Of a stretch of 50,147 nucleotides of DNA, positions 10,686 through 48,571 are shown piece after piece (position 1 is the stretch's first letter; each line of letters starts with the position of its first letter). The notes under the pieces were generated by a model. The model was not told where the DNA came from. It saw nothing but the letters and a program-made list of their open reading frames with translations, and searched no databases. The stretch is taken from contig CALBZG010000119.1 of the NCBI GenBank assembly GCA_937889655.1, forward strand, positions 1 to 50,147, given 5' to 3'. The translations under genes and the position numbers were made by a program. This DNA is from an uncultured Clostridia bacterium (lineage in GTDB: Bacteria > Bacillota > Clostridia > Peptostreptococcales > Anaerovoracaceae).

Positions 10686-10693
10686 TGGAAACT

Positions 10694-15361: not shown

Positions 15362-15380
15362 GTTGGAGCGATTTTAATAT

Positions 15381-15784: not shown

Positions 15785-15785
15785 A

Positions 15786-15817
15786 ATGGCCGCCCTTGAA
15801 AAGGGGCGGCCATTTTG
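15786..15817 (+). terminator. Intrinsic terminator
   Basis: ATGGCCGCCC-loop-GGGCGGCCAT followed by TTTT. Confidence 0.7.
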
Positions 15818-15896
15818 CTATACTGATGTTTACTTAACGGGATGGATATTTTTTATTCAACACCTGAATTTTACCGAAATTATGCGGAGGCTTTGC

Positions 15897-17483: not shown

Positions 17484-18259
17484 AGATAGCGGTCTGCATC
17501 AAGCAGGTGCCCTCCACCAATGAAGTGAGCATGGATCCGGTGACCAATACGATAATCAGGGACAGTCGTCAATCAGTAACGAATCCTTTTGATACCTATG
17601 CACTGGAACAGGCTGTCCAGCTAAAGGAGAAGCTGGGGGGCGAGGTGATCGCGATAAGCATGGGGATCCCTGGGACAGAGAGGCTTCTTCGGGATGCGGA
17701 AAGCCGCGGAGCTGACAGAGCCGTACTTTTAACTGATCGGGAGTTTGCGGGCGCCGATACGCTGGCAACATCCTATACGCTGGCGCTGGGGATCAAACAA
17801 TTGGGGGATGTGGACCTGATCCTGTGCGGCAAAATGGCAGTGGATGGTGATACCGCCCAGATCGGACCCGAGCTGGCCGAGCAGCTTGGCATTCCACACG
17901 CAACGGATGTTTGTGAGATCTTGGAAGCTGATCCCCAAAAAATCGTATGCCGAAAGAACACGGATTGGGGCACCATGGTATTGAGGATCCAATTGCCTGC
18001 ATTGCTTACGGTTTCAAAGGATATCAATCTGCCGAGACTTCCTTCTATTCCGGGAGTGCTATTTGGATTGACTGCACCCTTTGAGATAAAAGATGCGAAC
18101 AAGCTGGAGGCAGAACCCGGCCGCATTGGCTTGACCGGTTCACCTACGCAGGTCGTCAGCACCTATGTCATGCAGCGACGGAGCGAAGCGCAAAGCATTG
18201 AAGGCGAACCAGGGACTCAAGCGGAAAAAATAAAAAAGCTGATCAAGGAGCTTTTATAA
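17480..18259 (+). CDS. etfB: Electron transfer flavoprotein, beta subunit
   Basis: MKIAVCIKQVPS start and DLILCGKMAVDGDTAQIGP block. The ATGA start/stop overlap with the dehydrogenase gene indicates translational coupling. Confidence 0.85.
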   Translation: MKIAVCIKQVPSTNEVSMDPVTNTIIRDSRQSVTNPFDTYALEQAVQLKEKLGGEVIAISMGIPGTERLLRDAESRGADRAVLLTDREFAGADTLATSYTLALGIKQLGDVDLILCGKMAVDGDTAQIGPELAEQLGIPHATDVCEILEADPQKIVCRKNTDWGTMVLRIQLPALLTVSKDINLPRLPSIPGVLFGLTAPFEIKDANKLEAEPGRIGLTGSPTQVVSTYVMQRRSEAQSIEGEPGTQAEKIKKLIKELL

Positions 18260-18260
18260 C

Positions 18261-19490
18261 ATGTCGAAACTGAAAATAGATCCAAAGAAGTGCACCGGAT
18301 GCGGCGTCTGTGTAAGAAGCTGCAGCTTCAACGCACTCCGGATAGAAGATAATATAGCCAAAGTCAATGAAAATTGCACCCTTTGCGGCATTTGCACAGA
18401 GAGTTGTCCTTTTAATGCGATCAGGATCGAAAAAGAAAGCTTCGGGGGTATGGACGTCTCCCTTTACAGCGGGGTTTGGGTTTTTGCCGAACAACACCAG
18501 GGAGATATCTTACAGGTCGTATATGAACTGCTTGGTAAAGGGAAAGAGATTTCAGAGAAAAAGGTATGCCTTCTGACGGCAGTTCTCTTTGGCGAGAATA
18601 TTAAGGACGAAATACCAAAACTGTTTGCTTATGGAGCCGACAGGGTCATTTATTGCGAAGACCCTGCTCTGAGAATGAACTTGGAAGAGGACCAAACAAG
18701 ACTGTTAGAGCAACTGATTTCAGTGCACAAGCCAGATATATTTCTTTTTGGCGCCACTGGATTTGGACGATCACTGGCTCCAAGAATAGCCGCAAGAGTC
18801 GGAACAGGACTGACAGCGGATTGCACGCAGCTGGATATCGATCCCGAATCAGGATCGTTGCTGCAGACCAGGCCCGCTTTTGGCGGCAACCTCATGGCAA
18901 CGATCATATGCCCGGAGCATCGTCCTCAAATGGCTACCGTTCGTCCCGGCGTAATGCTGGCAAAGGATCCTGAGGACCTGGCAGATGCAGCAGCCGCTTC
19001 AGGGAAGAAACATGAAGTTATCTCATTGCCGTGGATCGATTCGGCACCAAATAAGCAGGGCGTCGAAGTCTTGCAGGAGATCCTGAGTAAAAGGGTAAAC
19101 AGTATTGCCGACGCCGAAATCATCGTTTCTGCCGGCAGGGGTATAGGATCTCAAAAGAACATGACCCTTGTAAAAAGGCTGGCAGAATTGATCGGTGCCC
19201 GGGTGGGCGTGTCAAGACCGCTGGTGGATATCGGATGGAGCGAGTACAAGAATCAAATTGGTCAGACCGGGTCTTCCGTTTCTCCGAAACTGTTGATCAC
19301 CTGCGGTATTTCCGGTTCAGTTCAACATCTTGCGGGAATTGGAAACGCTCATACGATCATCGCGATAAATAGCGATCCGGATGCAGCCATATTTTCTGTG
19401 GCGGATTATAAAGTGGTGGGAGATTGTGTCGAAATCCTCAAGAAGTTGATTGTTGCATTTGAAGAAGGGGATCTTAGTAGCAAGGTATAA
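18261..19490 (+). CDS. etfA: Electron transfer flavoprotein, alpha subunit with an N-terminal 2x[4Fe-4S] ferredoxin domain
   Basis: N-terminal CTGCGVCVRSC and CTLCGICTESCP motifs, then an EtfA body (GRGIG...RPLVD.GW...QIGQTG..V.P.LLITCGISGSVQH). Confidence 0.85.
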   Translation: MSKLKIDPKKCTGCGVCVRSCSFNALRIEDNIAKVNENCTLCGICTESCPFNAIRIEKESFGGMDVSLYSGVWVFAEQHQGDILQVVYELLGKGKEISEKKVCLLTAVLFGENIKDEIPKLFAYGADRVIYCEDPALRMNLEEDQTRLLEQLISVHKPDIFLFGATGFGRSLAPRIAARVGTGLTADCTQLDIDPESGSLLQTRPAFGGNLMATIICPEHRPQMATVRPGVMLAKDPEDLADAAAASGKKHEVISLPWIDSAPNKQGVEVLQEILSKRVNSIADAEIIVSAGRGIGSQKNMTLVKRLAELIGARVGVSRPLVDIGWSEYKNQIGQTGSSVSPKLLITCGISGSVQHLAGIGNAHTIIAINSDPDAAIFSVADYKVVGDCVEILKKLIVAFEEGDLSSKV

Positions 19491-19502
19491 AAGGTTATCA
19501 AG

Positions 19503-20081
19503 ATGAAAGAATACATTAGAGAATACCCGCGTTTTTCATTATGCGGACTCAATTGCGGGCTATGTCCGCGTTATCATACCGAGGGACCTTCCAGATGCCC
19601 CGGCTGCGGGGGCCCGGACTTCCATCTAAAACATCCGTCATGCGCGGTGATAACGTGCAATAAAAACCACGATCACGTGGAATATTGCTATCAATGCTCT
19701 TCATATCCATGCGAGAGGTATATTGGAGGCAGCGATACGGATTCTTTCATTTCTTATAGAAATGTTGCTTCGGATTTTGAAAAAGCGGCAACTGAAGGGA
19801 TCGATCCTTACAAAGATGAACTCGAACAAAAAATCGCGATATTGAATTTCCTTCTTTCAAATTTTAATGACGGAAGGAAGAAAAGTTTTTATTGCAATGC
19901 GATCAACCGACTCGAGATAAAGGATCTGAGGGAAATCATGGACAGCTTGTCCAAGGATGACGATAGGAAATCTGTTAATAATGTCGATGTTTTAAAAGAG
20001 AAAGCAGAACGCGCGTTGTCCTTGATAGAAAACAAAGCGGCAGAACAGAATGTTGATTTAAAACTCAGAAAAACAAAATAG
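19503..20081 (+). CDS. DUF3795-like cysteine-rich protein
   Basis: CGLNCGLCP...CPGCGG...CAVITC...CYQCSSYPC pattern. Confidence 0.6.
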   Translation: MKEYIREYPRFSLCGLNCGLCPRYHTEGPSRCPGCGGPDFHLKHPSCAVITCNKNHDHVEYCYQCSSYPCERYIGGSDTDSFISYRNVASDFEKAATEGIDPYKDELEQKIAILNFLLSNFNDGRKKSFYCNAINRLEIKDLREIMDSLSKDDDRKSVNNVDVLKEKAERALSLIENKAAEQNVDLKLRKTK

Positions 20082-24065: not shown

Positions 24066-24995
24066 TCAGCCACAACGAGCCAACAGCTTTTCCCATTTTG
24101 AGTCAATGTAATTCTGGGTTTCTTCGATCATGCATTCGGTTCCGGGCTCAAACATATGGCTGAATCTGCCCTGCCTGATAAGGAAGTCTTCTACAGGCAG
24201 CTTTTTCTTCGGGCTGTAATTAAGCTTCCAGATCCCTTCTTCGATTTCATAGAGAGGCCATACGCAGGTTTCCACAGCCAGCTTGCAGATGTCCGCAATA
24301 TCTTCCGTTTCATAGCGCCATCCTCGGGGACAAGGGGACAGAATGTTCAAAAAGGCAGGTCCCTTTGTATAAATAGCCTTACGGGATTTTTCGTGAAGAT
24401 CCTTAAAATTACTCAGAAAAGTGGTCTGAGCCGCATAAGGGATGTCATGGGCGGCAACGATGGCCGTCAGATCCTTTTTGTTTTGGAATTTACCCGGGAC
24501 CACAGAGCCTACCGGGGTTGTGGTGGCATCTGCGAAACGCGGAGTCGAGGATGACCTCTGTATACCGGTGTTCATATAGGCTTCATTGTCGTAGCAGACA
24601 TAAACCATGTCATGCCCGCGCTCCAGGGCCCCGGACAATGATTGTATGCCGATATCGTATGTACCTCCGTCGCCTCCAAAAGCAATGAACTTATAGTTTT
24701 CCTCGATTTTTCCGCGCTTTTTCAATACTCTGTAAGCGGCTTCGACACCGCCTGCTGTGGCGCCGGCATTTTCAAATGCGCTGTGGATGTAGCTGTCCGT
24801 ATAGGCAGTATAAGGATATAAAAAAGTGGATACCTCAAGACAGCTGGTGGCATTGACGACCACCGCTTTATCTTCCGGATCAAGGGCTCTTAAGACTCCG
24901 CGAACAGCGATAGCGGCGCCGCAGCCTGCGCATAAACGATGGCCGCCCACAAGGCGCTCTGGTTTTGCTGCTTCATTTTTCAGATTGTAGGCCAT
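24066..24995 (-). CDS. Pyruvate / 2-ketoisovalerate-type 2-oxoacid:ferredoxin oxidoreductase, beta (TPP) subunit
   Basis: N-terminal CAGCG motif and GGDGGTYDIG TPP motif. Last gene of a gamma-delta-alpha-beta operon. Confidence 0.85.
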   Translation of the reverse strand: MAYNLKNEAAKPERLVGGHRLCAGCGAAIAVRGVLRALDPEDKAVVVNATSCLEVSTFLYPYTAYTDSYIHSAFENAGATAGGVEAAYRVLKKRGKIEENYKFIAFGGDGGTYDIGIQSLSGALERGHDMVYVCYDNEAYMNTGIQRSSSTPRFADATTTPVGSVVPGKFQNKKDLTAIVAAHDIPYAAQTTFLSNFKDLHEKSRKAIYTKGPAFLNILSPCPRGWRYETEDIADICKLAVETCVWPLYEIEEGIWKLNYSPKKKLPVEDFLIRQGRFSHMFEPGTECMIEETQNYIDSKWEKLLARCG

Positions 24996-26191
24996 TATTT
25001 AAGCACCCCCTCTTCCCTTTGTCCTAAATGTCTATAGATCTTTCCCGTTTGCCCAGTCTTAACGATACTTTCCAGTTCTCTAAAGATAAATTTAAAGTCC
25101 TCTACCCGGATATCCCGACCGCCCAGGCCGTAGACATAATTGATGGATTTAGGACGAACATCCAGATCGTATAAGGCCGAACGGGTCTCAGCGAAAAGAG
25201 GGCCTCCGCAGGCGGAGAATCCTTCACACTTGTCCATAACGGCGATAGCTTTAACGTGGGCTAACGCCTCGGCCAGCTCCTCCATTGGGAAAGGCCTGAA
25301 CACCCGTATCTTGATCAAACCAACTTTATTGCCGGAGCTGCGCAACTCCCTGATAGCCTCTTTGGCGGTGCCGGCGCTGGAGCCGATGACCACGATGGCG
25401 GTCTCAGCATCTTCCATCATGTATTCTTCAAAAAAGCCATAGCTTCTGCCAGTCAGTTTTTCAAAATCTTTCGCGACGGACAGGATGACGCTTTTTGCGT
25501 TTTTCATAGCCTCGGCTTGAAGGATCTTGTGATCCATATAGTAGGCGGATATGTCGTAGGGACCTACGGCAAGAGGGTTTTCTTTTTTCAGCAGATAGTG
25601 CTCAGGCTCGTAATGGCCAACAAAACGCTTCACATCATCGTCTTCCAACAGTTCTATATTTTCCACAGCATGGCTGGTGATAAAGCCGTCCTGACAAACC
25701 ATCACCGGCAGTCTGACCGACTTGTTTTCTCCGATGGGCATGGCCATTATAAAGTTATCGTAAGCTTCCTGATTCGACTCGGAATAAAGCTGGATCCAGC
25801 CGCTGTCCCGGGCTCCCATAGAATCGGAATGATCGTTATTGATGTTGATCGGACCCGTCAAAGCCCGGTTTACAAGTGCCATGGTAACAGGCAGTCTGGC
25901 GGAAGCAGTTACATATAGCATTTCCCACATAAAAGCCATTCCGGCGGAGGAAGTCGCTGTAACCGCTCTGGCACCTGCCGCCTGAGCAGCAAAACAGGTG
26001 GACATGGCGCTGTGTTCTGATTCTACCGCTACAAATTCCGTATCGACTTCTCCGTTGGCTACATAACCCGAAAAATATTGTGGGATCTCTGTGGAGGGTG
26101 TTATGGGAAATGCCCCCATAACATCGGGATTGATTTGCTTCATAGCAATGGCTACAGCTTCGTTGCCTGATAGTCTTTCTTTGATACTCAT
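24995..26191 (-). CDS. 2-oxoacid:ferredoxin oxidoreductase, alpha subunit
   Basis: GNEAVAIAMKQINPDVMGAFPITPSTEI block and a PorA/VorA-like length of 398 aa. Confidence 0.85.
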   Translation of the reverse strand: MSIKERLSGNEAVAIAMKQINPDVMGAFPITPSTEIPQYFSGYVANGEVDTEFVAVESEHSAMSTCFAAQAAGARAVTATSSAGMAFMWEMLYVTASARLPVTMALVNRALTGPININNDHSDSMGARDSGWIQLYSESNQEAYDNFIMAMPIGENKSVRLPVMVCQDGFITSHAVENIELLEDDDVKRFVGHYEPEHYLLKKENPLAVGPYDISAYYMDHKILQAEAMKNAKSVILSVAKDFEKLTGRSYGFFEEYMMEDAETAIVVIGSSAGTAKEAIRELRSSGNKVGLIKIRVFRPFPMEELAEALAHVKAIAVMDKCEGFSACGGPLFAETRSALYDLDVRPKSINYVYGLGGRDIRVEDFKFIFRELESIVKTGQTGKIYRHLGQREEGVLK

Positions 26192-26195
26192 AGGA

Positions 26196-26510
26196 TCAAG
26201 CTTCCTCCTTTACGAAGGTTATGGCATTGACAGGGCAGATCTTAAAACAGATACCGCAGCCTTTGCAATGCATCAGATCAAAATCAAGACGCCGACCGCC
26301 AACGACGGGGATCGAGCTGTCCGGGCAAAACGGATAGCACAACATGCAGTGAGTGCACTTTTCCTCATGAAAAATCGGCCTCATCGTTCTCCAGGAGCCG
26401 GTGTCAACAAGGATGGAGGTTCCACCCTCGTAGATTTCTCCGCCAGGTGTTAGTTTTTGCCATGGAGTCGTTTCGTTAATATCTTTTGCTCTTGTTGTCA
26501 TCCTGCACAA
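26196..26510 (-). CDS. 2-oxoacid:ferredoxin oxidoreductase, delta (2x[4Fe-4S]) subunit
   Basis: CTHCMLCYPFCP and CKGCGICFKICP motifs. 104 aa. Confidence 0.8.
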   Translation of the reverse strand: MCRMTTRAKDINETTPWQKLTPGGEIYEGGTSILVDTGSWRTMRPIFHEEKCTHCMLCYPFCPDSSIPVVGGRRLDFDLMHCKGCGICFKICPVNAITFVKEEA

Positions 26511-27127
26511 ACCTCCTCCAGGGATTTATAGATTGCTTTCATATTGCCTTCCACTACATGGGGTTTCGATGCAAATTTATGTCTGAAGGAACTTTCCATA
26601 TCCGCAAGAAATTTTTCTCTTTCAATCACATTGCTCACTTTTACCGTAGCAGCCAGCATTGGGGTATTCGGAAAATTCTTCCCCAGGGTTTCTTCTGAGA
26701 TCCTTCTGGCATCGATAGAGTATATCTTCCCTTTGTAGCCTTTCAGCAGTGGCCGAAGCTCGTGAGGTTTTTTATCGCTGTTGATGATGACGGCACCGGT
26801 TTCTTTTAAACCTTGGGTCACATCCACGGTCGAAAGCAGCGTTTCGTCGACAACCACGACATAGTCAGGGTTATATATATTTGAGTGTACGGAACATTTG
26901 CTTTCGCTTATGCGATTATATGCCGTGATGGGTGCGCCCATTCTTTCTGGGCCGTATTCAGGAAAGCCCTGTACTTGCTTTCCCGAACTGAACGCTACAT
27001 CCGCCAGCAGCAGACATGCCGTCTTAGCGCCTTGACCACCGCGGCCATGCCATCTTATTTCAATGACGTCTTTCTCCTGATTTTCCTTAAGATTGTCATT
27101 TGGCTGATTTTCAATTTCTTTCATCAT
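26498..27127 (-). CDS. 2-oxoacid:ferredoxin oxidoreductase, gamma subunit
   Basis: IRWHGRGGQGAKT...YGPERMGAP block. GGAG RBS. First gene after the T-box leader. Confidence 0.8.
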   Translation of the reverse strand: MMKEIENQPNDNLKENQEKDVIEIRWHGRGGQGAKTACLLLADVAFSSGKQVQGFPEYGPERMGAPITAYNRISESKCSVHSNIYNPDYVVVVDETLLSTVDVTQGLKETGAVIINSDKKPHELRPLLKGYKGKIYSIDARRISEETLGKNFPNTPMLAATVKVSNVIEREKFLADMESSFRHKFASKPHVVEGNMKAIYKSLEEVCAG

Positions 27128-38185: not shown

Positions 38186-39343
38186 ATGAAAACAATTTCC
38201 ACCGGACAGCAGAATACAAGATCAGGGAACCGATATGGACGATCAGAGTGGGCAGGTGCCTTTGGGGACCTCGGAACTCTGATTCCTTTTATTGTTGGGT
38301 ATATCAGCATAGTAAGAATGGATCCCCGTGGAGTTCTTTTTATGCTGGGTATACTGCTGATTGGATCAGGGCTTTACTATAAGACACCGATCCCGGTACA
38401 GCCAATGAAAGCCATCGGTGCAGCCGCCATAGCTTCATCCGGGGCAATCACGCCGGGAATGATATGGGGAGCAGGTCTGTTTACGGGTGTCTTCTGGCTC
38501 TCTTTGGGATTGTCCGGCCAGTTGGTTAAAGTATCGAAAATTGCATCCAAGCCTGTTCTAAGAGGAATCGTTCTGGGATTGGGACTCTTGTTTATGATGG
38601 ACGGGTTAAATATGATGAGGAAAGATTTCCTCGTCGCAGGCATCGCTCTTTTACTGACATTTGCGCTTCTTAAGAATAAAAAAGTACCTGCAATGTTTGT
38701 CTTGCTTATATTCGGTATGACTGCCGCAGTCCTCCGTAACCCTGCTTTTTTAGCGGAAATTTCAAAAATAAATCTGGATATTCAAATGCCTGAAGTAGCG
38801 CTAGGAAAGATTACTGTTCAGGAAATAATAAAAGGCATTTTACTTCTTGGGATTCCGCAGATCCCTTTGACTTTCGGAAATGCTGTCGTCGCAATCACTT
38901 CCGAAAACAACCGGTTGTTCCCTGCGCATCCGGTAAATGAAAACAAAATCGCGATATCCCAGGGGATTATGAATCTGATTTCACCACTTTTTGGCGGGAT
39001 CCCGGTTTGTCACGGCGCCGGCGGTATGGCAGGCCATGTTCGATTTGGTGCAAGAACCGGAGGAGCTCTTGTTATTTTAGGAGGGATACTCCTTGCAACA
39101 GGAATTTTCTTTGGCAGTTCTGTACTGTTGATTTTTGAAATATTTCCGCAAAGCGTGCTTGGTGTAATTTTATTTTTTGCAGGGCTGGAGCTTGCGGCCC
39201 CGGTCTGGAATGCCGGCATGGAAAGAAAAGATCAATATCTGCTGCTTGTTACGGCGGTTTTCTCGTTGTGGAATATCGGAATCGGATTCGCTGTCGGATT
39301 GATCCTGCAGGAACTATTTAATAGAAAATGGATCGATATCTGA
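38186..39343 (+). CDS. Putative sulfate/molybdate transporter (MOT / SulP-related family membrane protein)
   Basis: The N-terminal SEWAGAFGDLGTLIPF block resembles the MOT family. About 10 hydrophobic segments. The ATG lies only 11 nt after the tRNA CCA end. Confidence 0.6.
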   Translation: MKTISTGQQNTRSGNRYGRSEWAGAFGDLGTLIPFIVGYISIVRMDPRGVLFMLGILLIGSGLYYKTPIPVQPMKAIGAAAIASSGAITPGMIWGAGLFTGVFWLSLGLSGQLVKVSKIASKPVLRGIVLGLGLLFMMDGLNMMRKDFLVAGIALLLTFALLKNKKVPAMFVLLIFGMTAAVLRNPAFLAEISKINLDIQMPEVALGKITVQEIIKGILLLGIPQIPLTFGNAVVAITSENNRLFPAHPVNENKIAISQGIMNLISPLFGGIPVCHGAGGMAGHVRFGARTGGALVILGGILLATGIFFGSSVLLIFEIFPQSVLGVILFFAGLELAAPVWNAGMERKDQYLLLVTAVFSLWNIGIGFAVGLILQELFNRKWIDI

Positions 39344-39582: not shown

Positions 39583-40812
39583 TCAAGGAGCATTGCAGTA
39601 CTTGCCCATAAACAAGATGCTTCCGGTAGCTTCTTCTTCGATCAGGAAAAGGAATGGCCGATCGGCAATGAAAGTGACAGGCTCCTGCGCAGCGGTCTCG
39701 GCAACGATCACAACAGTGACCCCGGCAGCTTCGCTGCCTTCTTCATTGACTTCTATAACTGCCTTGTGTAAAACTTCGCTTATGAATAATCCCTCGCGGA
39801 TCCCCGACAGGTCCGCTTCTGCCGAAAAAGGCAGCTCCATGCCCATCGCGATAAGCGAGTCGTTCAATTTTTTGATCCCGTACTCCATTTTGAACTTCGG
39901 TACTTGAAGCAGAACATCTTCGGTGTTCTTTAAAGTATCTTTAACACTATTAAACTTATCGGAATCCATGGTCCGAATAAAGGAATCGATATCCTGACCG
40001 GCTTCCGGAAGGATAAAATACATGGCAGTTTTACCTTCCCCGTAAGGCAGCCTGACCGCTTTGTAATCATAGCCTTCTCCATATTCCACTTCGCCTTTCA
40101 TACTCATCATATCGATTGTTTGGAAACCGTCGATGCCATTAAAATCCGTCTGAAAAGTATCCTCTATATTGAACTGAGCCGCCCATTCGCCTTTGAAGTA
40201 AACCGCATTGATCAAGTACATAACGACTTGATCCGGGATAGGCGGATCGATCATTTTATCTATTTTCCCTTTCGTTGACTCTTTGATCCATTTATTAATG
40301 GCGTTGACAGTTTCCGGATCAGAAAAATCAGCCTCTTTGACCTCTGCATCAAAAACGTTTTGATTTGTGGAAATGAATTCTTCTTTGATCGCTTCGCCCT
40401 GCCGGTACCAGATAGAATTGCATATGTTCAGTTCCACTTTCTTGTCGGTTTGCGATAGATAAGGCAATAGGTTGCTATAAGTTTCATTTACTTCATGGAT
40501 TATGAGGCCTTCATATCGCAGCCCCTTTTCCATTTGCGCCAGTGTGTCTCCTAAAGCGCCGTTATAGGTCATGGTAAGTGCCGTGGAAATGCTCAAAGGC
40601 GATATAAATATATTCTCAGCCTTTTCCTCCCTGTTGATTTCTCTGAATATGTCAAAGGCGAAATCAACGTTTCGACCAGTCACCTCGTTATTGATTTTAT
40701 TTAGATCATAACTCTTGTCATTCTCAGTGTTTTGACTGCATCCCGCGGTAACAGCCACCATCATGATTAGGCCCAATAACAAAACAACGGGTTTTTTTAT
40801 ATTGATTTTCAT
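39583..40812 (-). CDS. Serpin-family protease inhibitor, lipoprotein
   Basis: Lipobox signal peptide (VTAGC). Serpin hinge and reactive-centre loop EEGSEAAGVTVVIVAETAAQEP. C-terminal signature FIADRPFLFLIEE...ILFMGK. Confidence 0.85.
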   Translation of the reverse strand: MKINIKKPVVLLLGLIMMVAVTAGCSQNTENDKSYDLNKINNEVTGRNVDFAFDIFREINREEKAENIFISPLSISTALTMTYNGALGDTLAQMEKGLRYEGLIIHEVNETYSNLLPYLSQTDKKVELNICNSIWYRQGEAIKEEFISTNQNVFDAEVKEADFSDPETVNAINKWIKESTKGKIDKMIDPPIPDQVVMYLINAVYFKGEWAAQFNIEDTFQTDFNGIDGFQTIDMMSMKGEVEYGEGYDYKAVRLPYGEGKTAMYFILPEAGQDIDSFIRTMDSDKFNSVKDTLKNTEDVLLQVPKFKMEYGIKKLNDSLIAMGMELPFSAEADLSGIREGLFISEVLHKAVIEVNEEGSEAAGVTVVIVAETAAQEPVTFIADRPFLFLIEEEATGSILFMGKYCNAP

Positions 40813-40922
40813 GTTGACACCCCCCTTGATACTTTAGACAGGTTAGAACGATTTTTTGTTTCATCCACCTTCAGAAGCTTTATGCCGCGGCCGAATGAAA
40901 CATCATTTCGCGATTGCCAGGT

Positions 40923-40951
40923 TTGACAAATCCATTATACTATACTACAAT
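40923..40951 (+). promoter_or_regulatory. Sigma-A promoter of the six-gene Ehr/Hyf-like operon
   Basis: TTGACA (40923-40928), 17-nt spacer, TACAAT (40946-40951). Confidence 0.6.
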
Positions 40952-40993
40952 GAAAAAGCTTGCGGCTATTTGCAGCAGGAAAGTTCGGAGGGG

Positions 40994-43048
40994 ATGGACA
41001 TCGGAATGGAAGTTTTTCAAACCGTGGTGCTATTAAAATCATCATTTGCGTTATTGGGCATTGCCGCAGTTATAGCTCTTATTGCTTCCGGCAAGCAAAA
41101 ATTCTGCAATCTATCAGTTAACATGATATGCATCGTGTCATCCATTTTAATGATGGCAGCTTCCGGATTCATCATATTGTCAGAAAACCAATTTGTTAAA
41201 ATTCATATTTTTGATACCGCTATTCCTTTTCTGTCTTTAGAGCTGGCTGTTGATGGGCTTTCCGCCCTTTTCCTTCTGATCTTGTCTATTCTGGTATTTT
41301 GCATATCGGTGTATTCCATCGGCTACATATCCCATTACTTCGGGAAGCGAAATGTAGGCCTTTTTTATTTCCTTTATTCAACCTTCATCTTATCGATGGC
41401 TTTGGTATTTACATCATCAAATGCAGTATTTTTCTATATTTCGTGGGAAGCCATGTCTGTGCTCTCTTATTTTCTGGTGATTTTCGAATCGGAGATCGAG
41501 AAAAATCAGAAAGCCGGAATTTTATATATTGTCATGACCCATATCGGAACAGCCTTTTTGCTTATAGGGTTTATGATCTCATACAGCTTTACCGGATCTT
41601 TTGATATCACCGGCAGCTCTCAGGCGATACCTGAAGGGGCTAAAAATATTATTTTCATTCTGTATTTGCTTGGTTTTTGTACGAAGGCCGGTGCGATACC
41701 GGTACACATTTGGCTTCCATATGCCCATCCGGCGGCCCCAAGTAACGTATCGGCGCTTATGTCGGGAGTCATGATCAAAACGGCCATTTATGGCCTTGTC
41801 CGTTTTGTCATGGAATTTCTTGGAGTGCAGCATACATGGTGGGGCGTGCTGATTATTGTTATTGGGGTTTTGTCAGCTTTCCTTGGAGTAGCCTATGCTC
41901 TGATGGAGCACGACATGAAGAGGTTGCTGGCTTATCATAGTGTAGAGAATATCGGCATCATTTTAATCGGTCTGGGGATCAGTTTTATCTCCTTTAATGG
42001 GGGGAACACCATTATCGGGTCGATGGCATTGACGGCTTCTCTGCTCCACACCTTGAACCATGCGCTTTTTAAAGGCGGATTATTTTTGGGCGCCGGCTCC
42101 ATCCATTATGCGACGCATACAAAAGATATTGAAAAATTAGGAGGCCTGATCCGAACGATGCCTGTTACGGCACTATTCGTGCTTTGCTTTTCTCTGGCCA
42201 TTTCGGCAATCATTCCCTTCAATGGTTTTGTAAGCGAGTGGCTTACATTTTTATCGATATTCACTTATGTTGCACCTGGGCAGGCAGGCATCAACATCAT
42301 ACTGATTATAGCTGTTGCCACCCTCGGCATGGCCGGAGCATTGGCCGCTGCATGCTTTGTGAAGTTTTATGGCATCTCTTTTCTCGGACTTCCCAGAACT
42401 AATCAGGCCGCAGAAGCCAGAGAAGTTTCTGCTCCAATGAATATCGCCATGGGCATCATAGGGGGTATTTGCCTTCTAATAGGACTATTACCGATGCAGG
42501 CAATCAGAACGATCGACAAAGTTACTTTCAGCTTGACTGGCGCATCCTCCGTAACCCAGTTGGGCCAAGGGTTTATCGATCCTTGGATCTCACTGGATAA
42601 TACCGGTAGCTCGATATCTCCTGCAGAAATTTTTGCTGCTCTCGCAGTCGTGTCGCTGTTGACGCTCATAGCCGTCAGGATCATCGGAGGAAAGTATCTT
42701 GAACGGAGATATGGCTCCTGGGATTGTGGATTTGAAGCATTGAATCCCAGAATGCAATATACAGCCACCGGGTTTTCAAAGCCAATAAAAATCGTTTTTA
42801 GGATATTATTCAGACCTTCAAGAAAAACGGAGCTCAAGGGTGGATCAAGATACCAGCCTGATGAAATCGAATACACTACAACCTCTGAATCCATTTTTGA
42901 GAAATATGCATACAGGCCGGCTTTTCAGCAAATAATAACCTTTTCAAGAAGAGCCAAGTTTTTTGTTCAAACGGGTAAAATACATAACTATTTGATATAT
43001 ATTTTTATCGCCGTATTAGCTTTGATGGCCTACAACAGATTTGTTTAG
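40994..43048 (+). CDS. NuoL/HyfB-like antiporter-type membrane subunit
   Basis: Large polytopic protein with the ND5/HyfB block WLPYAHPAAPSNVSALMSGVMIKTAIYG. The start is ATG 40994 or 41006, after a GGAGGGG RBS. The track's N-terminal extension is unlikely to be real. Confidence 0.8.
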   Translation: MDIGMEVFQTVVLLKSSFALLGIAAVIALIASGKQKFCNLSVNMICIVSSILMMAASGFIILSENQFVKIHIFDTAIPFLSLELAVDGLSALFLLILSILVFCISVYSIGYISHYFGKRNVGLFYFLYSTFILSMALVFTSSNAVFFYISWEAMSVLSYFLVIFESEIEKNQKAGILYIVMTHIGTAFLLIGFMISYSFTGSFDITGSSQAIPEGAKNIIFILYLLGFCTKAGAIPVHIWLPYAHPAAPSNVSALMSGVMIKTAIYGLVRFVMEFLGVQHTWWGVLIIVIGVLSAFLGVAYALMEHDMKRLLAYHSVENIGIILIGLGISFISFNGGNTIIGSMALTASLLHTLNHALFKGGLFLGAGSIHYATHTKDIEKLGGLIRTMPVTALFVLCFSLAISAIIPFNGFVSEWLTFLSIFTYVAPGQAGINIILIIAVATLGMAGALAAACFVKFYGISFLGLPRTNQAAEAREVSAPMNIAMGIIGGICLLIGLLPMQAIRTIDKVTFSLTGASSVTQLGQGFIDPWISLDNTGSSISPAEIFAALAVVSLLTLIAVRIIGGKYLERRYGSWDCGFEALNPRMQYTATGFSKPIKIVFRILFRPSRKTELKGGSRYQPDEIEYTTTSESIFEKYAYRPAFQQIITFSRRAKFFVQTGKIHNYLIYIFIAVLALMAYNRFV

Positions 43049-43066: not shown

Positions 43067-44026
43067 ATGAACTATTTGATATATATGGTATTGCAAATAA
43101 CAGTGATCATCGTCTTCGCTCCACTGATCAGCGGTGTGATAAGAAAGATCAAGGCGCTTTCCCAAAAACGAAAAGGCGCGCCTGTTTTTCAGATGTATTA
43201 TGATCTTCATAAACTGTTTAGAAAGACATCCGTCGTTTCGGAAACTTCGTCGTGGATTTTTAAAGCTGCACCTTACGTTTTTTTTTCAACAGCTGTTACA
43301 GCAGCTTTACTGGTGCCTGTATCGACGTTGATCCCCCAACCTTCGAGTCTGCCGGGAGATTTTATCGTTATGGTTTCCGTATTAGCATTGGGAAGATTTT
43401 TTATGATGCTGGCCGGGCTTGACACCGGAAGCACTTTCGGCGGCATGGGAAGCAGCAGAGAGGCTTTGATATCCTCTCTGATAGAACCGTCGATTCTGGT
43501 CTCTCTCTTTACAATAGCACTTATTACCGGGTCCACCTCCCTCTCAAGGATCCTATTCGTCGTAAACAGCAGTGAAAACCAGCTGCCGCTTCAGGTATCC
43601 ATATTGATATTCCTTGCTTTGCTGGTAATCATCATTGCAGAAACAGCCCGGATACCGGTAGACGATCCTTCCACCCATTTGGAGCTTACCATGGTTCATG
43701 AAGCTATGATCCTTGAATACTCCGGAAGACATCTTGCATTGATGGAATATGGCGCAGCCGTCAAACAGTTGACATTGATCACGCTGCTGGTCAATATTTT
43801 ACTTCCTTTCGACGGAATGATTTCACAAACCGGCATGATGGCCATCCTGCTGTCCTTGCTATTTTATGCAGCAAAGGTGCTCATGGCAGCGGTCCTGATT
43901 GCATTGATCGAGATAAATTGTGTAAAGCTTAAGCTTTTCAGCATACCTAATCTTGCCGCACTGGCCTTTATCCTTTCCTTTGTGGCATTTTTACAATTTT
44001 TTGTTCTGGGAGGCAACCATGTCTGA
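43067..44026 (+). CDS. NuoH/HyfC/HycD-like membrane subunit
   Basis: 319 aa and polytopic. The block ETARIPVDDPSTHLELTMVHEAMILEYSG is typical of HycD/HyfC. Confidence 0.8.
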   Translation: MNYLIYMVLQITVIIVFAPLISGVIRKIKALSQKRKGAPVFQMYYDLHKLFRKTSVVSETSSWIFKAAPYVFFSTAVTAALLVPVSTLIPQPSSLPGDFIVMVSVLALGRFFMMLAGLDTGSTFGGMGSSREALISSLIEPSILVSLFTIALITGSTSLSRILFVVNSSENQLPLQVSILIFLALLVIIIAETARIPVDDPSTHLELTMVHEAMILEYSGRHLALMEYGAAVKQLTLITLLVNILLPFDGMISQTGMMAILLSLLFYAAKVLMAAVLIALIEINCVKLKLFSIPNLAALAFILSFVAFLQFFVLGGNHV

Positions 44027-44678
44027 TTTATTTGATACGCTTTCAGTGCTGATCCTGATGACTGCCTTTGTTTTGATGGCAAATAAAAAAGTCAAGGCCT
44101 ATATTAAAACCTTTCGCGTACAATCTGCACTGATCGCTCTCTCAGCCGGTATTCTGGGTGTCGAAGCCATTATGGATGAAGGACGTTATGATCTCATGGT
44201 GGTCTGCGTACTGATCGTAGTTCTAAAAGTGATCTATATTCCCGGCTTACTGCATAAAACTTATGCCGGTATCGAATACAGAACAGAAAAAGATTTCATA
44301 CTCAACATTCCAATATTGGTATTAATAAGCTGCAGTCTTGTAGTATTCACATATTTTTCGTTTTCAGCAAGCGGCTTCGGCGTCAACGGTAGCGTCATCG
44401 ATCTTCAACTTGTGAATACGATATCGGTCACAATGATCGGACTTCTTTTTATGATCACCAGGAAAAAAGCCATAGGTCAGATCATAGGATTTCTGGAGGT
44501 TGAAAACGGGATATTCATAACAGCGATGTTTTCCACCCAGGGGATGCCTTTTATCGTCGACATGGGGATCTTCATCGATATGCTGACGGCTGTGATGATC
44601 ATGGGTGTGCTGGTCTTTAAAATCAACGTTACATTTGAATCGATCAATACCGACAGGTTGAACAAACTGAAAGGATAA
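44019..44678 (+). CDS. HyfE-like membrane subunit (NuoK-related C-terminus)
   Basis: The start ATG 44019 (GGGAGG RBS) overlaps the upstream stop by 8 nt. The block QIIGFLEVENGIFITAM is typical of HyfE. Confidence 0.75.
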   Translation: MSDLFDTLSVLILMTAFVLMANKKVKAYIKTFRVQSALIALSAGILGVEAIMDEGRYDLMVVCVLIVVLKVIYIPGLLHKTYAGIEYRTEKDFILNIPILVLISCSLVVFTYFSFSASGFGVNGSVIDLQLVNTISVTMIGLLFMITRKKAIGQIIGFLEVENGIFITAMFSTQGMPFIVDMGIFIDMLTAVMIMGVLVFKINVTFESINTDRLNKLKG

Positions 44679-44689: not shown

Positions 44690-46162
44690 ATGAGTTTTCT
44701 GATTCTTGCAGTACCGGTAATCGCCGCGCTGCTGATGATAACCAACAGAATTATTAGGAGAATGCATATAATCAGCCTGGCAGCTTCCGGAACAATGCTG
44801 GTATCCGCAATTCCCATCACAAGCGATATTTTAGCTTTTGGGAAAATAGAATCTTCGTTCATGGGGGGATTCCTATATTTGGATGCGCTCAGCGTGATCG
44901 TATTGGATATCGTCGTGTTGATCGGTTTTTTGGCCTGCATATATTCTGTTGGATATCTGAAACGCGAAATCCTTCTGGGGGCATTTGACTTTAAGAGGGT
45001 CCGGCTTTATTATGTCCTAATGTTTTCCTTCATGTTTACAATGCTGCTGGCCCTTTCGGTCAAAAATGTCGGCATCATGTGGATCGCAATTGAAGCAACG
45101 ACTCTGGCCTCGGCATTTCTTGTGGGTTTCTATAACGACAGATATGCCCTTGAAGCCGCCTGGAAATATATCATGATCTGCTCTGTCGGCATTGCCTTGG
45201 CAATGCTGGGGATCATATTTCTGAACCTTTCAGCCATGGCCGCCTTGGACAGTTCAGCGCAGCTCGACTGGACAGCTCTGATGGATAACGCCGGCAGCCT
45301 GAAACCCTCATCCGTCAGGCTTGCCTTTATTTTCATCCTTGTGGGTTTCGGGACAAAGGCAGGACTGGCGCCTATGCATACATGGCTGCCGGATGCCCAT
45401 AGCCAGGCGCCTGCACCAATAAGTGCGCTGCTTTCCGGTGTGCTGCTTAATAGTGCAATGTATGGAATCATTCGAATCACTGCTGTGACCAATAAAAATA
45501 TGGGAAGCAGTGAATTCTCCGGCAACTTGCTGATTCTCCTTGGCATGCTTTCTATTCTGACCGCAAGCGTTTTCATTCTGACCCAAAAAGATTATAAAAG
45601 ACTGCTAGCCTATTCCAGTATCGAGCACATGGGGATCATTGCCGTTGCTATAGGTTTTTTTACACCGGCGTCTATATTCGGCGGGTTGTTTCATATGCTC
45701 AATCACTCGCTGACAAAATCCATGCTTTTTTTCTGCTCCGGCACCATCCTTCAGAAATACGGCACAAGGCAAATTACGAAAATCAAAGGCGCCATCAAGC
45801 TCCTTCCCTATACAGGTACAGCATTTTTGCTTGGATTGTTTGCCATTGCGGGAACGCCTCCGTTCAGCATTTTTGCAAGTGAATTCAGCATAATGTCAGC
45901 AATTTTCAAAGAGGGGGATTTCATCATCGGCTCTGTTCTTATCATGCTGCTGGCTTTTGTTTTCGCAGGCATCGCCATAGCTTTATTCAGGATTTTTTAC
46001 GGGACAAGCAGCATGGAAACACCACAGCCTGGCGAAATCAATATCCCGGGAACTATAGCCGCCTTGATCCTTCTGCTCATGATAAGTACCATGGGGCTGC
46101 TGATACCGGAACAATTGAAGGAATTGCTTCATAATGCGCAAAATATCATATACGGATCATAA
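44690..46162 (+). CDS. NuoM/N / HyfF-like antiporter-type membrane subunit
   Basis: 490 aa with the block GLAPMHTWLPDAHSQAPAPISALLSGVLLNSAMYG. Confidence 0.8.
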   Translation: MSFLILAVPVIAALLMITNRIIRRMHIISLAASGTMLVSAIPITSDILAFGKIESSFMGGFLYLDALSVIVLDIVVLIGFLACIYSVGYLKREILLGAFDFKRVRLYYVLMFSFMFTMLLALSVKNVGIMWIAIEATTLASAFLVGFYNDRYALEAAWKYIMICSVGIALAMLGIIFLNLSAMAALDSSAQLDWTALMDNAGSLKPSSVRLAFIFILVGFGTKAGLAPMHTWLPDAHSQAPAPISALLSGVLLNSAMYGIIRITAVTNKNMGSSEFSGNLLILLGMLSILTASVFILTQKDYKRLLAYSSIEHMGIIAVAIGFFTPASIFGGLFHMLNHSLTKSMLFFCSGTILQKYGTRQITKIKGAIKLLPYTGTAFLLGLFAIAGTPPFSIFASEFSIMSAIFKEGDFIIGSVLIMLLAFVFAGIAIALFRIFYGTSSMETPQPGEINIPGTIAALILLLMISTMGLLIPEQLKELLHNAQNIIYGS

Positions 46163-46195: not shown

Positions 46196-47776
46196 GTGTT
46201 AACAAAATTTATGGCCGGGATACAGGGGGCCTTTGGTCCAAGTATCCTCAAAAGCAGCGTCTGCAATCGGAATGAACTATATATCGATGTGGAACCGGAA
46301 CGAGCGCCGATGATCTGCACATATCTTTGCAGCGAGCTCGGATATCCGCTGGTTTCCATGTTTGCCTGCGATGAGCGTGAATTGACGAACCGCTTTTTCG
46401 TTTACTATGTTTTTGCCGACAGAAAAAATACAAAGCTGGTCATTATCAGAGTAGCCGTTGATCCGGCCAAGATGGAGATAAGATCCCTCAGCGGAAAGGT
46501 TTACGCTGCGGCTCGCTATGAACGGGAAATAAAGGATCTTTTCGGAATTGTTCCCGTAGGGCATCATAATCCGAAAAGGCTTGTATTCCATAGCAACTGG
46601 CCGAAAGGGGCATACCCTCTAAGAAAGGATTACGAAATCAGCCACCGCCCTGATGTTGCAAGGGAGACGATCAAATTCCAAAAGGTCAGGGGCGAAGGAG
46701 TTTATGAAATACCTGTGGGGCCGGTCCATGCAGGAATCATCGAACCGGGACATTTTCGCTTCAGTGTGGCGGGAGAACCGATCATCAATTTGGAGGCCCA
46801 GCTCTATTACACCCACAAAGGGATCGAAAAGCTCTGTGAAGGGAAAAGCATCGAACAATGCCTCTATATCGCCGAAAGAATTTCCGGTGATGAGACGTTC
46901 GCTAATTCATTGGCTTATTGCCAGGCAGTTGAAAAAATCGGCGATATCAGGATTCCGGGCCGGGCGCAATATACGAGGGTCGTATTTGCCGAGCTGGAAA
47001 GACTGATTTGCCATCTTGGCGATTTGGGCGGCATTTGCCTTGATACCGGTTATGGCTTTGCCAACGGACAGTTCAGAATGCTGAGAGGATGGGCGTATAA
47101 TATCGCTGATGAGCTGTGCGGAATGAGATTCTTGCGCAGCGTGAACCGGATCGGCGGTGTCCGAAAGGACTTTATTGCCGGTAAGGAAGCCGTGGTGATC
47201 CAACTGTTGAAAAAGCTGCACACCGAATTGACGGACACTGTCGGGATCATAAAATCCAACAGTATGTTTATGGATAGAGTCGAAAATACTGGAATTCTAA
47301 AGACCAAGACTGCGGGGGACCTGAATGCTGTTGGCCCGGGCGGAAGAGCTTCGGGAATCGGACATGATGTACGGAAGGACTTTCCTTATGAAGCATATGG
47401 AGAACTCAAGCTTAAAATTCCGGTGTATTATTACGGAGACGTAAACTGCAGGATGAATGTCAAAATCGACGAATGCTTCCAGTCGTTAGAAATGATCATC
47501 TCTGCGCTGGAGTCCATGCCGGAAGGCAAGATAACGGGACAGGTCGGACTTCTAGAGCCATATCGCTTTTCCTTCGGCATGACGGAGGCGCCGCGGGGAG
47601 AGAACATCCATTTTGTCATGACGGGAGAAAACAACACACTACTCCGCTATAAAATCAGAACTCCTTCTTTCTGCAATTGGCCGGCTTTATGCGTTGCCGT
47701 GAAAGGGAATATCGTTCCGGATTTCCCGCTCATAAACAAGAGCTTCAATCTATCTTATGCAGGCAACGATTTATAA
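46196..47776 (+). CDS. HycE/HyfG-like (NuoC-NuoD fusion) large subunit lacking the [NiFe]-binding cysteines (EhrL-like)
   Basis: NuoC-like N-terminal domain followed by GPVHAGIIEPGHFRFSV...THKGIEK. The expected ER-x-C-G-x-C-x3-H site reads ERISGDETFAN (46874-46906). The expected C-terminal D-P-C-x2-C-x-D-R site reads NLSYAGNDL (47747-47773). Confidence 0.85.
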   Translation: MLTKFMAGIQGAFGPSILKSSVCNRNELYIDVEPERAPMICTYLCSELGYPLVSMFACDERELTNRFFVYYVFADRKNTKLVIIRVAVDPAKMEIRSLSGKVYAAARYEREIKDLFGIVPVGHHNPKRLVFHSNWPKGAYPLRKDYEISHRPDVARETIKFQKVRGEGVYEIPVGPVHAGIIEPGHFRFSVAGEPIINLEAQLYYTHKGIEKLCEGKSIEQCLYIAERISGDETFANSLAYCQAVEKIGDIRIPGRAQYTRVVFAELERLICHLGDLGGICLDTGYGFANGQFRMLRGWAYNIADELCGMRFLRSVNRIGGVRKDFIAGKEAVVIQLLKKLHTELTDTVGIIKSNSMFMDRVENTGILKTKTAGDLNAVGPGGRASGIGHDVRKDFPYEAYGELKLKIPVYYYGDVNCRMNVKIDECFQSLEMIISALESMPEGKITGQVGLLEPYRFSFGMTEAPRGENIHFVMTGENNTLLRYKIRTPSFCNWPALCVAVKGNIVPDFPLINKSFNLSYAGNDL

Positions 47777-47788: not shown

Positions 47789-48571
47789 ATGTTAGATAAA
47801 ACCAAAAAAATATTAAAATATAAAATCCTTACGCAAGATTATCCGAAAGTGCAGCCGGACATGAGCCTTTGGGCTGGAAATCCCATGATCAATAGTTCTA
47901 AATGCAATGGGTGCGGCGAATGTGTCGGGAGATGCCCATCCGGTGCCATTATTTGGAATAAGGATTCCGAAGCGCCTTACATCGACTTTGACCGGTGTAT
48001 TTTCTGCTTGTTGTGTCATGAAGTTTGTCAGGCGGGAGCTGTTGATCTAATCAAGGAATTCCAGATGGCCCGGAAGGAAAAGCGAAATTTCAAATACGAG
48101 GCTGTTGGAGCTGGAGCCGATGACACAGAAGCTTCTTTAGATGCTTTGGGTATGGAACTGCAATCTAAAATTAAAAAATTGTATGGCAGAAGTTTGATGG
48201 TACGGGAAGTGGATGCGGGCTCCTGCAACGGCTGCGACTGTGAAATCAACGCTGTAACCAATCCTTTCAATGAAATCGAACGATTTGGGATCAGCTTTGT
48301 CGCTTCGCCCAGACACGCGGATATGCTCCTTGTGACCGGTATATGCACCAGGAATATGCAGGAAGCACTGCTCAAGACATACCAGGCAACTCCCGATCCT
48401 AAGCTTGTAGTAGCAGTGGGATCCTGTGCCTGCTCAGGCGGGATATTCAGGGATACCTACGCTTCCGGAAATGGCATCGACGGCATCGTACCGGTAGATG
48501 TCTACATACGCGGATGCCCTCCGAGGCCACAGACTATTATTTATGGAATTTTAAAAGCGCTGGATCGTTAG
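47789..48571 (+). CDS. Fusion of a 2x[4Fe-4S] ferredoxin domain to a NuoB/HycG-like small subunit (EhrS-like)
   Basis: N-terminal CNGCGECVGRCP and CIFCLLCHEVC motifs. The C-terminal NuoB-like module keeps its cluster cysteines (GSCNGCDCE, GSCACSGG, GCPPRP). Confidence 0.85.
   Translation: MLDKTKKILKYKILTQDYPKVQPDMSLWAGNPMINSSKCNGCGECVGRCPSGAIIWNKDSEAPYIDFDRCIFCLLCHEVCQAGAVDLIKEFQMARKEKRNFKYEAVGAGADDTEASLDALGMELQSKIKKLYGRSLMVREVDAGSCNGCDCEINAVTNPFNEIERFGISFVASPRHADMLLVTGICTRNMQEALLKTYQATPDPKLVVAVGSCACSGGIFRDTYASGNGIDGIVPVDVYIRGCPPRPQTIIYGILKALDR

Follow-up and report, generated by a model that had tools for sequence, protein, structure and literature searches.

The 50,147-nucleotide stretch analysed here (contig CALBZG010000119.1 of an uncultured Clostridia bacterium, below called the window) carries on its plus strand, at approximately 40.9-48.6 kb, a six-gene operon with the order EhrA-EhrB-EhrC-EhrD-EhrL-EhrS. 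Its fifth gene (46196-47776, +, GTG start) encodes a protein of 526 aa that fuses a NuoC-like part to a NuoD/HycE-like large subunit without the Ni-Fe ligands. This protein is very probably EhrL of the six-subunit Ehr (energy-converting hydrogenase-related) complex, a nickel-free offshoot of the group 4f membrane-bound [NiFe] hydrogenases. The complex cannot make or split H2, since none of the four cysteines that bind the metals is left.

In Pfam, EhrL matches Complex1_30kDa (NuoC-like, residues 30-150) fused to Complex1_49kDa (NuoD-like), and its score against NiFeSe_Hases, 24.3 bits, lies under the cut-off of 25.8. The best solved-structure match is HycE of Escherichia coli formate hydrogenlyase (7z0s_E; phmmer, E=2e-92). 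The 7z0s_E chain has an internal tag, and the native HycE number equals the PDB index minus 12, as checked against the residues named in PMC9474812. The former N-terminal Ni-Fe motif (46874-46906, +; residues 227-237) reads ERISGDETFAN, that is, E-R-I-S230-G-D232-E233-T-F-A-N237. The former C-terminal motif (47726-47773, +) reads PLINKSFNLSYAGNDL, that is, PLINKSF-N518-L-S520-Y-A-G523-N-D-L526, followed directly by the stop codon (47774-47776). In the phmmer alignment with HycE, ERISGDETFANSLAY stands opposite DRVCGICGFAHSTAY, and PLINKSFNLSYAG opposite PLIIGSLDPCYSC. The Ni-Fe ligands C241, C244, C531 and C534 of HycE correspond to S230, E233, S520 and G523 of EhrL, respectively; D232 corresponds to I243, N237 to H248, N518 to the canopy Asp D529, and the last residue, L526, to R537, the Arg of the HycI cleavage site, the EhrL C-terminus coinciding exactly with the HycE maturation cleavage site. 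The original prediction for this gene, which had read the changes as Cys to Ser, Cys to Glu and His to Asn in the N-terminal motif, and as Cys to Ser and Cys to Gly before a stop in the C-terminal one, is thus confirmed by the HMMER alignment, with agreeing coordinates.

Neither group 4 signature, each of which contributes two Cys ligands, is present: the L1 motif RxCGxCxxxH is replaced by R-I-S-G-D-E-T-F-A-N, and the L2 motif DPCxxCxx(H/R) by N-L-S-Y-A-G-N-D-L and the stop. All 14 cysteines of EhrL lie away from the ligand positions, and no alternative alignment brings one there. Ligand cysteines hidden by misalignment, which the prediction had named as a possible refutation, were rejected, since HMMER, MAFFT and the Foldseek superposition of an AlphaFold2 (AF2) model agree in placing no Cys at or beside the ligand columns. 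The maturation genes hyp and hycI are found neither within the 50 kb window nor within 10 kb of the operon in two related loci, the syntenic JGI contig L047 and the Desulfotomaculum locus L048, whose large subunit retains the cysteines.

The loop between strands beta1 and beta2, GPVHAGIIEPGHFRF (46718-46762, +), contains Glu183 and His178, the equivalents of the proton donor Glu193 and of His188 of HycE; the pocket-lining segment (47591-47665, +) extends from P466-R467 (EAPRG, with the canopy Arg, R478 in HycE) to R488-T489-P490, with S491 next to it (47666-47668). In the alignment to HycE, the proton-path and canopy equivalents H273 (H284), E426 (E437) and R384 (R395) are also kept, together with E183, H178 and R467; the roles of these residues and of those of the E-channel are as described in PMC9474812. 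The blocks that the prediction had listed as conserved (the loop just mentioned, THKGIEK, EAPRGE and SLAYCQAVEK) are all present. Its view of a remodelled cavity holds for the replaced ligands, but it had missed three further changes, namely the canopy Asp turned into Asn518, a new Asp283, and the C-terminal Arg turned into Leu.

We compared EhrL with its 120 best database matches (64-92% identity), which come from Desulfosporosinus, Acetobacterium, Desulfitobacteriia, Dehalobacterium and many Clostridia metagenome-assembled genomes (MAGs). The motif ER[IV]SGDE[TS]..N and the C-terminal end NKSFNLSY[AS][GS]NDL-stop were each observed in 120/120 of these homologues. SGD together with the C-terminal SY[AS]G.D[LM] is kept in 44 of the 46 genome loci showing the region, and both motifs persist in Nitrosocosmicus archaea at 37% identity. 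Over residues 227-246 column conservation is 0.93, over residues 509-526 it is 0.996, and over the whole protein 0.78. The beta1-beta2 loop motif is matched in 116 of the 120 close homologues, and Glu183 itself is invariant (121/121), also in alignment A1, which takes in Cys-type relatives. As the replaced motifs are kept in 120/120 homologues and 44/46 loci, the conserved replacement of both Ni-Fe motifs is far beyond chance. The ratio of nonsynonymous to synonymous substitution rates (dN/dS) is 0.072 for EhrL when compared with the 92%-identical orthologue in L047, and 0.07-0.16 for all six operon genes. The AF2 model, built from a 51-sequence alignment, has a mean predicted local distance difference test (pLDDT) score of 92 and a predicted template modelling score (pTM) of 0.93, residues 176-182 of the beta1-beta2 loop being the sole low-confidence stretch; it superimposes on HycE (7z0s_E) with a template modelling (TM) score of 0.96 and a root-mean-square deviation of 1.8 A.

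These values bear on the alternative that EhrL is a decaying pseudogene, or a cryptic hydrogenase using other cysteines as ligands. In its favour, one relative is split into two open reading frames (ORFs) at the motif, and the clade of the window has conserved cysteines at positions 242, 281, 493 and 499. However, a decaying gene would be at odds with the dN/dS of 0.07 and with motifs that are the same in all 120 homologues and conserved across phyla, while none of the clade-specific cysteines is conserved in the wider Cys-less family and the hyp and hycI genes are missing within 10 kb in both loci mentioned above. We reject decay on these grounds and consider both variants essentially excluded. 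The prediction had likewise argued for a functional protein, proposing a check for the S-G-D-E pattern in orthologues; neither random substitution nor elevated dN/dS was found.

The split relative is locus L042, an Anaerovoracaceae MAG, in which the large-subunit gene (9959-11579) forms two overlapping ORFs with a frameshift exactly after ERISGG, which marks either an assembly error or a pseudogene; the database representative P0250 is truncated at this very point. As for the cysteines, EhrL Cys242, 281, 308, 493 and 499 (46919-46921, 47036-47038, 47117-47119, 47672-47674 and 47690-47692) are kept in at least 120 of 121 clade sequences and are not conserved across the wider Cys-less family. 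Cys281 aligns with HycE Cys292, and Cys281 and Cys493 flank positions 283 and 489, which discriminate between the pocket types described below.

A further alternative is that the pocket became a quinone cavity similar to that of complex I, with Ehr acting as a ferredoxin:menaquinone oxidoreductase. One proposal places Ehr, as an intermediate, between the group 4 hydrogenases and complex I in evolution (PMC4758237), and Asn237 matches the Asn found at that position of Aquifex NuoD. Still, the quinone-binding Tyr of NuoD stands opposite the invariant Gly231, and the beta1-beta2 His opposite the hydrogenase-like Ile182-Glu183. Moreover, close homologues occur in Acetobacterium and Ruminiclostridium, genera that to our knowledge have no quinones. 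We regard a quinone reductase of this kind as quite improbable.

When 50%-identity representatives were searched exhaustively with HMMER, 8,412 matches were obtained, of which the best 150 served for comparing the pocket. Among these, two interleaved types share the frame formed by GPxHAGIIEPGHFRF and the C-terminal NKSF...Y..D: a Cys type (20 representatives) with ERxCG[VA]C..H and ELCYxCxDR, and a Cys-less type (71 representatives). They differ at position 230 (C in the Cys type against S/A in the Cys-less type), 232 (V/A against D, the latter in 71/71), 233 (C against S/T/E/N), 283 (G against D), 466 (P against W), 489 (S against D), 490 (A against P), 518 (E against N), 520 (C against S), 523 (C against G) and 526 (R against L), while the Cys-less group keeps R467 and S491 at 93% or more. 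Since the segments EAPRG (466-467) and RxP(S/T) (489-491) correspond to those contacting Fe(CN)2CO in [NiFe] hydrogenases (general structural knowledge and PMC9474812), the discriminating positions all line the old Ni-Fe pocket. The canopy Asp, which according to PMC9474812 is strictly conserved in both hydrogenases and complex I, is replaced by Asn518 in 60 of the 71 Cys-less representatives.

Within the Cys-less type the residues covary. The sub-type of the window combines Glu233 with Asn237, Thr489 and Pro/Ala466 and is seen in Bacillota, Nitrosocosmicus and a few other lineages; the commoner one combines Ser/Thr233 with His237, Asp489 and Trp466; and a third set has Asn233, His237, Asp489 and Pro466. 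As the sets differ within one type, Asp232 is the universal feature, the second carboxylate shifts between 233 and 489, and the Asp-Glu combination is one of several solutions. The prediction had treated the Asp-Glu pair as the new feature of the metal site: the acidic remodelling of the pocket is indeed systematic, but the pair is not one unit, Asp232 being present in 71/71 and Glu233 being clade-specific. In a neighbour-joining tree computed with the pocket columns masked, the star-like backbone did not resolve whether Glu233/Asn237/Thr489 arose once or several times.

If the new residues only compensated for the loss of the anionic Ni-Fe(CN)2CO cofactor, they would be expected to balance one another in volume and charge: Asp232, the second carboxylate (Asp489 or Glu233), Trp466 and the Ser and Asn residues would then fill the void and neutralise Arg467, leaving a pocket without a substrate, and electrons would take another exit from the proximal cluster, such as a membrane carrier where EhrB and EhrS meet; alternatively, the Fe-S chain might merely gate an Mrp-like antiporter. 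The covariation does resemble such compensation (Glu233/Pro466/Thr489/Asn237 versus Ser or Thr233/Trp466/Asp489/His237), Arg467 is kept at 93% or more, the new Asp residues are situated exactly at the cofactor-ligand and CN-binding sites (structural knowledge, PMC9474812), and no partner genes are conserved beside the operon. This explanation is also simpler, and fits as well as the ligand binding or proton relay by acidic residues that the prediction had suggested. On the other hand, Glu183, the whole proton path and the E-channel are invariant, which is unexpected for an inert pocket, and the replacements in the clade of the window add no net bulk (Cys to Gly, His to Asn), so that a hydrated cavity probably persists. 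We consider a plugged pocket possible, although not the likelier outcome.

The same residues could instead bind a hard metal (Fe2+, Mn2+, Mg2+ or Zn2+) or a coupling ion through carboxylate, Ser, Asn and His ligands, yielding a new redox-linked catalytic or ion-loading centre approximately 10 A from the proximal cluster. Asp232 is invariant and always accompanied by one more ionisable residue, either Glu233 or His237/Asp489; Ser230, Ser491 and Ser520 are conserved, and the C-terminal carboxylate is placed as in mature hydrogenases. However, no known metal-binding motif was matched, and the clades differ in their ligand set, an unusual situation for a catalytic metal site. A metal or cation site of this kind seems unlikely.

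A deeper Cys-less lineage (P0145, P0152, P0160, P0183, P0197, P0198, P0209, P0215, P0216, P0227, P0246-P0248) was also observed, which lacks Asp232 (S[TLVR][SGD]H) and whose beta1-beta2 loop is changed to GPVRSG..ES. In this lineage the Ni-Fe site may have been lost independently.

The remaining genes of the operon encode the membrane part and the small subunit. EhrA (40856-43048, +) is a NuoL/HycC-like antiporter-like subunit with a C-terminal ND3-like extension (Pfam Proton_antipo_M, E=2.7e-56; best PDB match HycC, 7z0s_C, E=5.7e-66), which keeps the Glu of transmembrane helix 5 (TM5), the TM7 Lys (CTKAGAIPVHIWLPYAH), the TM11 His/His/Lys, the TM12 Glu and the ND3-loop Cys (WDCGF). Its ORF opens at a TTG approximately 50 codons upstream of the homology onset (window 40856-41010). 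A putative promoter, TTGACA-17-TACAAT (40923-40951, +), defined by an 11/12 consensus match only, lies upstream of the likely start; because this promoter-like site sits inside the upstream extension, the true start is probably ATG 40997 or 41009. EhrB (43067-44026, +), a NuoH/HycD-like membrane anchor (Pfam NADHdh, E=9.5e-39; HycD, 7z0s_D, E=9e-46), keeps the E-channel equivalents R110, E132, E140, E192 and E212 (residue roles from PMC9474812). EhrC (44022-44678, +), a HyfE-like small membrane subunit, has no Pfam match; its position and sequence are conserved in 37 loci, with a gene call of equal length in the syntenic L047. EhrD (44690-46162, +) is the second antiporter-like subunit, NuoM/N/MbhH-like (Pfam Proton_antipo_M, E=1.6e-53; MbhH, 6cfw_H, E=9e-40), and keeps the TM5 Glu, the TM7 Lys (GTKAGLAPMHTWLPDAH), the TM11 His/His/Lys and the TM12 Glu.

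EhrS (47789-48571, +) fuses a HycF-like ferredoxin domain with two [4Fe-4S] clusters (Cys39-Cys80, 47903-48028) to a NuoB/HycG-like domain (approximately 48158-48562), as seen in matches to Pfam Fer4 and Oxidored_q6, HycG (E=1.4e-40) and HycF (E=3.5e-12). The proximal cluster keeps its cysteines 146, 149, 213 and 243 in 48-49 of the 49 sequences compared, and the ferredoxin domain its eight cysteines in 36-42 of them, these being kept in Bacillota; Nitrospirota EhrS lacks this domain. In archaea (L034, L036-L038, L040; Nitrosocosmicus and relatives) the N-terminus has only 4/8 ferredoxin Cys positions (49, 70, 73, 76), which suggests, at the level of sequence, one cluster instead of two. Of 49 loci, 43 have an extra conserved cysteine, Cys215, two residues past the third proximal-cluster ligand (Cys213-Ala-Cys215, 48425-48433; GSCACSGG); HycG, MbhJ and NDUFS7 of complex I have no such cysteine. 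As a correlate of Ni-Fe loss this cysteine was rejected, since the Cys-type Desulfotomaculum operon L048 shares it.

Taken together, the Fe-S relay, the proton path, the E-channel and both pump modules are retained, and therefore the complex looks, as far as residue conservation can tell, fully able to transfer electrons and to translocate ions; what it lacks is only the metal site that forms H2.

The locus scan, with one genome per species, gave 46 loci. The order A-B-C-D-L-S is identical in all 37 loci long enough to show it, in Bacillota, Nitrospirota and Thaumarchaeota. The closest among the Bacillota loci is an Oscillospiraceae MAG (80%), others being from Ruminiclostridium, Anaerovoracaceae and Peptococcaceae; Nitrosocosmicus archaea have an Ehr-type operon with an EhrL of approximately 37% identity. 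Three Nitrospirota loci (L039, L041, L043) contain two complete six-gene Ehr operons in tandem (approximately 5000-12200 and 12300-19900), which differ in the pocket type, ERVSGTSS..H with Pro/Ser in one and SGD[ST]..H with Trp/Asp in the other; both small subunits are without the ferredoxin domain.

The assignment to Ehr follows from the features by which the class is defined: a large subunit homologous to group 4 and NuoD proteins without the four Ni-Fe cysteines, encoded in an operon EhrA-EhrB-EhrC-EhrD-EhrL-EhrS. Loci with the same operon and motifs were found in Nitrosocosmicus and Nitrospirota, and a 45%-identical Cys-type relative in Desulfotomaculum, all of them taxa in which Ehr has been named (PMC10432482, PMC10284858, PMC3569383). 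Coppi (2005) first noted Ehr in Geobacter sulfurreducens (GSU0739-0745), and a survey by Marreiros et al. 2013 followed (cited in PMC4758237); since then Ehr complexes have been known as Cys-less relatives of group 4f hydrogenases with unknown function. The large subunits have been described as lacking RxCGxCxxxH and DPCxxCxxH/R and as having nuoH, nuoL, hyfE and hyfB neighbours (PMC4378227). The Ehr of comammox Nitrospira (PMC10284858) and that of ammonia-oxidising archaea including Nitrosocosmicus (PMC10432482) are both placed near group 4f, with the function unknown; for the Ehr of lineages sibling to Cyanobacteria, there has been speculation that a formate dehydrogenase is the partner (PMC6349859), and proteomics of G. 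sulfurreducens, where the subunit names are listed, detected all Ehr subunits, at higher abundance on formate (PMC7894505). The Cys-type relative L048 agrees with the statement that EhrL of D. ruminis keeps its four Cys (PMC3569383).

Hence the novelty that the original prediction attributed to the replaced motifs does not stand: the loss of the Ni ligands is the defining hallmark of an already published class (PMC3569383, PMC4378227, PMC6349859, PMC10284858, PMC10432482, PMC4758237) and is not new in kind. New here are the invariance of Asp232, the clade-specific Glu233 covarying with Asn237/Thr489/Pro466, and the retention of the Fe-S relay and of the proton-path and antiporter residues.

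The rest of the window contains histidine-degradation genes, two gene sets for 2-oxoacid:ferredoxin oxidoreductases (3704-6594, +, and 24066-27127, -), a set with an FAD-linked oxidase and electron-transfer flavoprotein (Etf) subunits, transporters and a serpin. From this gene content the host is predicted to be an amino-acid-fermenting anaerobe making reduced ferredoxin. At 15786-19490 the FAD-linked oxidase adjoins EtfB and an EtfA fused to a ferredoxin domain, an arrangement resembling an electron-confurcating Etf set with a dehydrogenase for lactate or another 2-hydroxyacid. The Ehr operon is directly preceded by a bacterial serpin gene (39583-40812, -; Pfam Serpin, E=3.5e-112, lipoprotein-like N-terminus), which lies next to a gene for a MOT1/SulP-family anion transporter (38186-39343, +), both being syntenic in L047 and L001. 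Downstream of the operon, L047 has a Rex gene and an [FeFe]-hydrogenase cluster.

As a tentative model, which we hold to be a real possibility and the likeliest of the mechanisms considered, Ehr might carry out a ferredoxin-fed reduction of an acceptor other than protons at or near the pocket, coupled to ion translocation. We infer in it the donor, the direction of electron flow, and both the existence and the position of an acceptor site. Reduced ferredoxin, which should be plentiful in such a fermenter and for which the two oxidoreductases and the putative lactate dehydrogenase/Etf system of the window provide the context, would pass electrons to the ferredoxin domain of EhrS and further to the proximal [4Fe-4S] cluster. 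The old Ni-Fe pocket would serve as a polar chamber on the proton path, lined by Asp232, Glu233, Asp283, Glu183, Arg467, Ser230/491/520 and Asn237/518, and would give protons, via Glu183 and Asp232/Glu233, to a small acceptor other than H+. The acceptor would be reduced at or beside the proximal cluster, for which the Ni-free MBS complex is a precedent, and the linked charge changes would power the translocation of H+ or Na+ through EhrB, EhrA and EhrD.

Several points weigh against this model. In all-against-all clustering of the flanking ORFs of 47 loci, no flanking family was conserved across clades, so that the neighbourhood gives no lead. The flanks contain only lineage-specific housekeeping neighbours, for example, cysteine desulfurase, ThiI, LexA and serine hydroxymethyltransferase (SHMT), and a conserved partner enzyme beside the operon (formate dehydrogenase, carbon monoxide dehydrogenase (CODH), Hdr and the like) was rejected as a candidate. 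The main Ehr type has Trp in place of Pro466, which suggests that the cavity may simply be filled and have no use. For the acidic residues, the geometry is predicted by homology only. Ferredoxin is not a universal donor, because the Nitrospirota versions have no ferredoxin domain. Finally, the Ehr assignment itself was made through the described features and through relatives from Ehr-bearing taxa.

A stronger version, which we find doubtful, is that Asp232, the mobile second ionisable group (Glu233 here, Asp489/His237 elsewhere), Glu183 and Arg467 form a new functional centre, either binding a metal or a coupling ion, or loading protons for an undiscovered acceptor that the proximal cluster reduces. 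If this were true, Ehr would be a kind of ferredoxin-driven ion pump that has so far escaped recognition, with a wide distribution among fermenting Clostridia, nitrifiers and metal reducers.

Ehr is widespread, with the 8,412 matches found here and with members in Clostridia, Desulfotomaculum, Nitrospirota and ammonia-oxidising archaea, and is placed in evolutionary schemes between group 4 hydrogenases and complex I, its function being unsolved. With the window, one further member is known and the overall picture stays as it was; what makes it interesting is the unsolved function of Ehr and the residue-level map, not the novelty of the finding. This map, with the invariant Asp, the four-position covarying network that defines sub-types, the lost canopy Asp, and the retained relay, path and pump residues, could steer mutagenesis and structural work on any Ehr complex that is tractable. 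The results also argue against the hydrogenase or NADH dehydrogenase labels now given by databases.

Among the known systems, NuoCD/NuoB (Nqo4/Nqo6) of complex I have the same fold, the NuoC-NuoD fusion as in E. coli and Aquifex, no Ni-Fe cysteines and an N2-type cluster. However, the quinone ligands of complex I (the Tyr of RLDY, aligned with Aquifex NuoCD, and the beta1-beta2 His) are not found in EhrL, which has the hydrogenase-type loop IIEPGH with Glu183 and a hydrogenase-like C-terminal frame unlike that of NuoD; among the six operon genes there is no match to NuoA, J, K or E, F, G. The MBS/Mbx complex of Pyrococcus furiosus (6U8Y) is likewise a group-4-derived, Ni-free, ferredoxin-dependent ion-translocating complex, with the chemistry proposed at the proximal cluster and the pocket, but it is much more distant (large subunit E=7.6e-25), comprises 13 subunits with an Mrp module, and its sulfane-sulfur substrate is not indicated for the complex of the window.

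The formate hydrogenlyase Hyd-3 of E. coli (HycE/HycG/HycF/HycD/HycC, PDB 7Z0S), named as the best solved-structure match for every subunit, shares the proton-path, canopy Arg and E-channel residues. In contrast to the complex of the window, it possesses the Ni-Fe site and a C-terminal extension that HycI cleaves, HycF and HycG are separate proteins, the single antiporter-like subunit is without the TM7 Lys, and FdhF/HycB forms the electron-input module. The group 4f [NiFe] hydrogenases (Ehf-type) are represented by the Cys-containing Desulfotomaculum "EhrL" of L048, approximately 45% identical to EhrL of the window. Its operon has the identical six genes, the ferredoxin-NuoB fusion and the GACAC motif, and the large subunits have the same frame, GPxHAGIIEPGHFRF and NKSF...Y..D. 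The 4f proteins keep ERxCG[VA]C..H and ELCYxCxDR, whereas in the window these motifs carry C to S, V/A to D, C to E, H to N, E to N, C to S, C to G and R to L.

Finally, Ehr proper (EhrABCDLS of Geobacter; Marreiros 2013), also present in Firmicutes, Nitrospira and ammonia-oxidising archaea, has the same six-gene composition and a Cys-less large subunit. Nothing categorical distinguishes the window from other Ehr: it belongs to the sub-type with Glu233/Asn237/Thr489/Pro466 rather than to the commoner one with Ser or Thr/His/Asp/Trp, and its small subunit, unlike that of Nitrospirota, carries the fused two-cluster ferredoxin domain.

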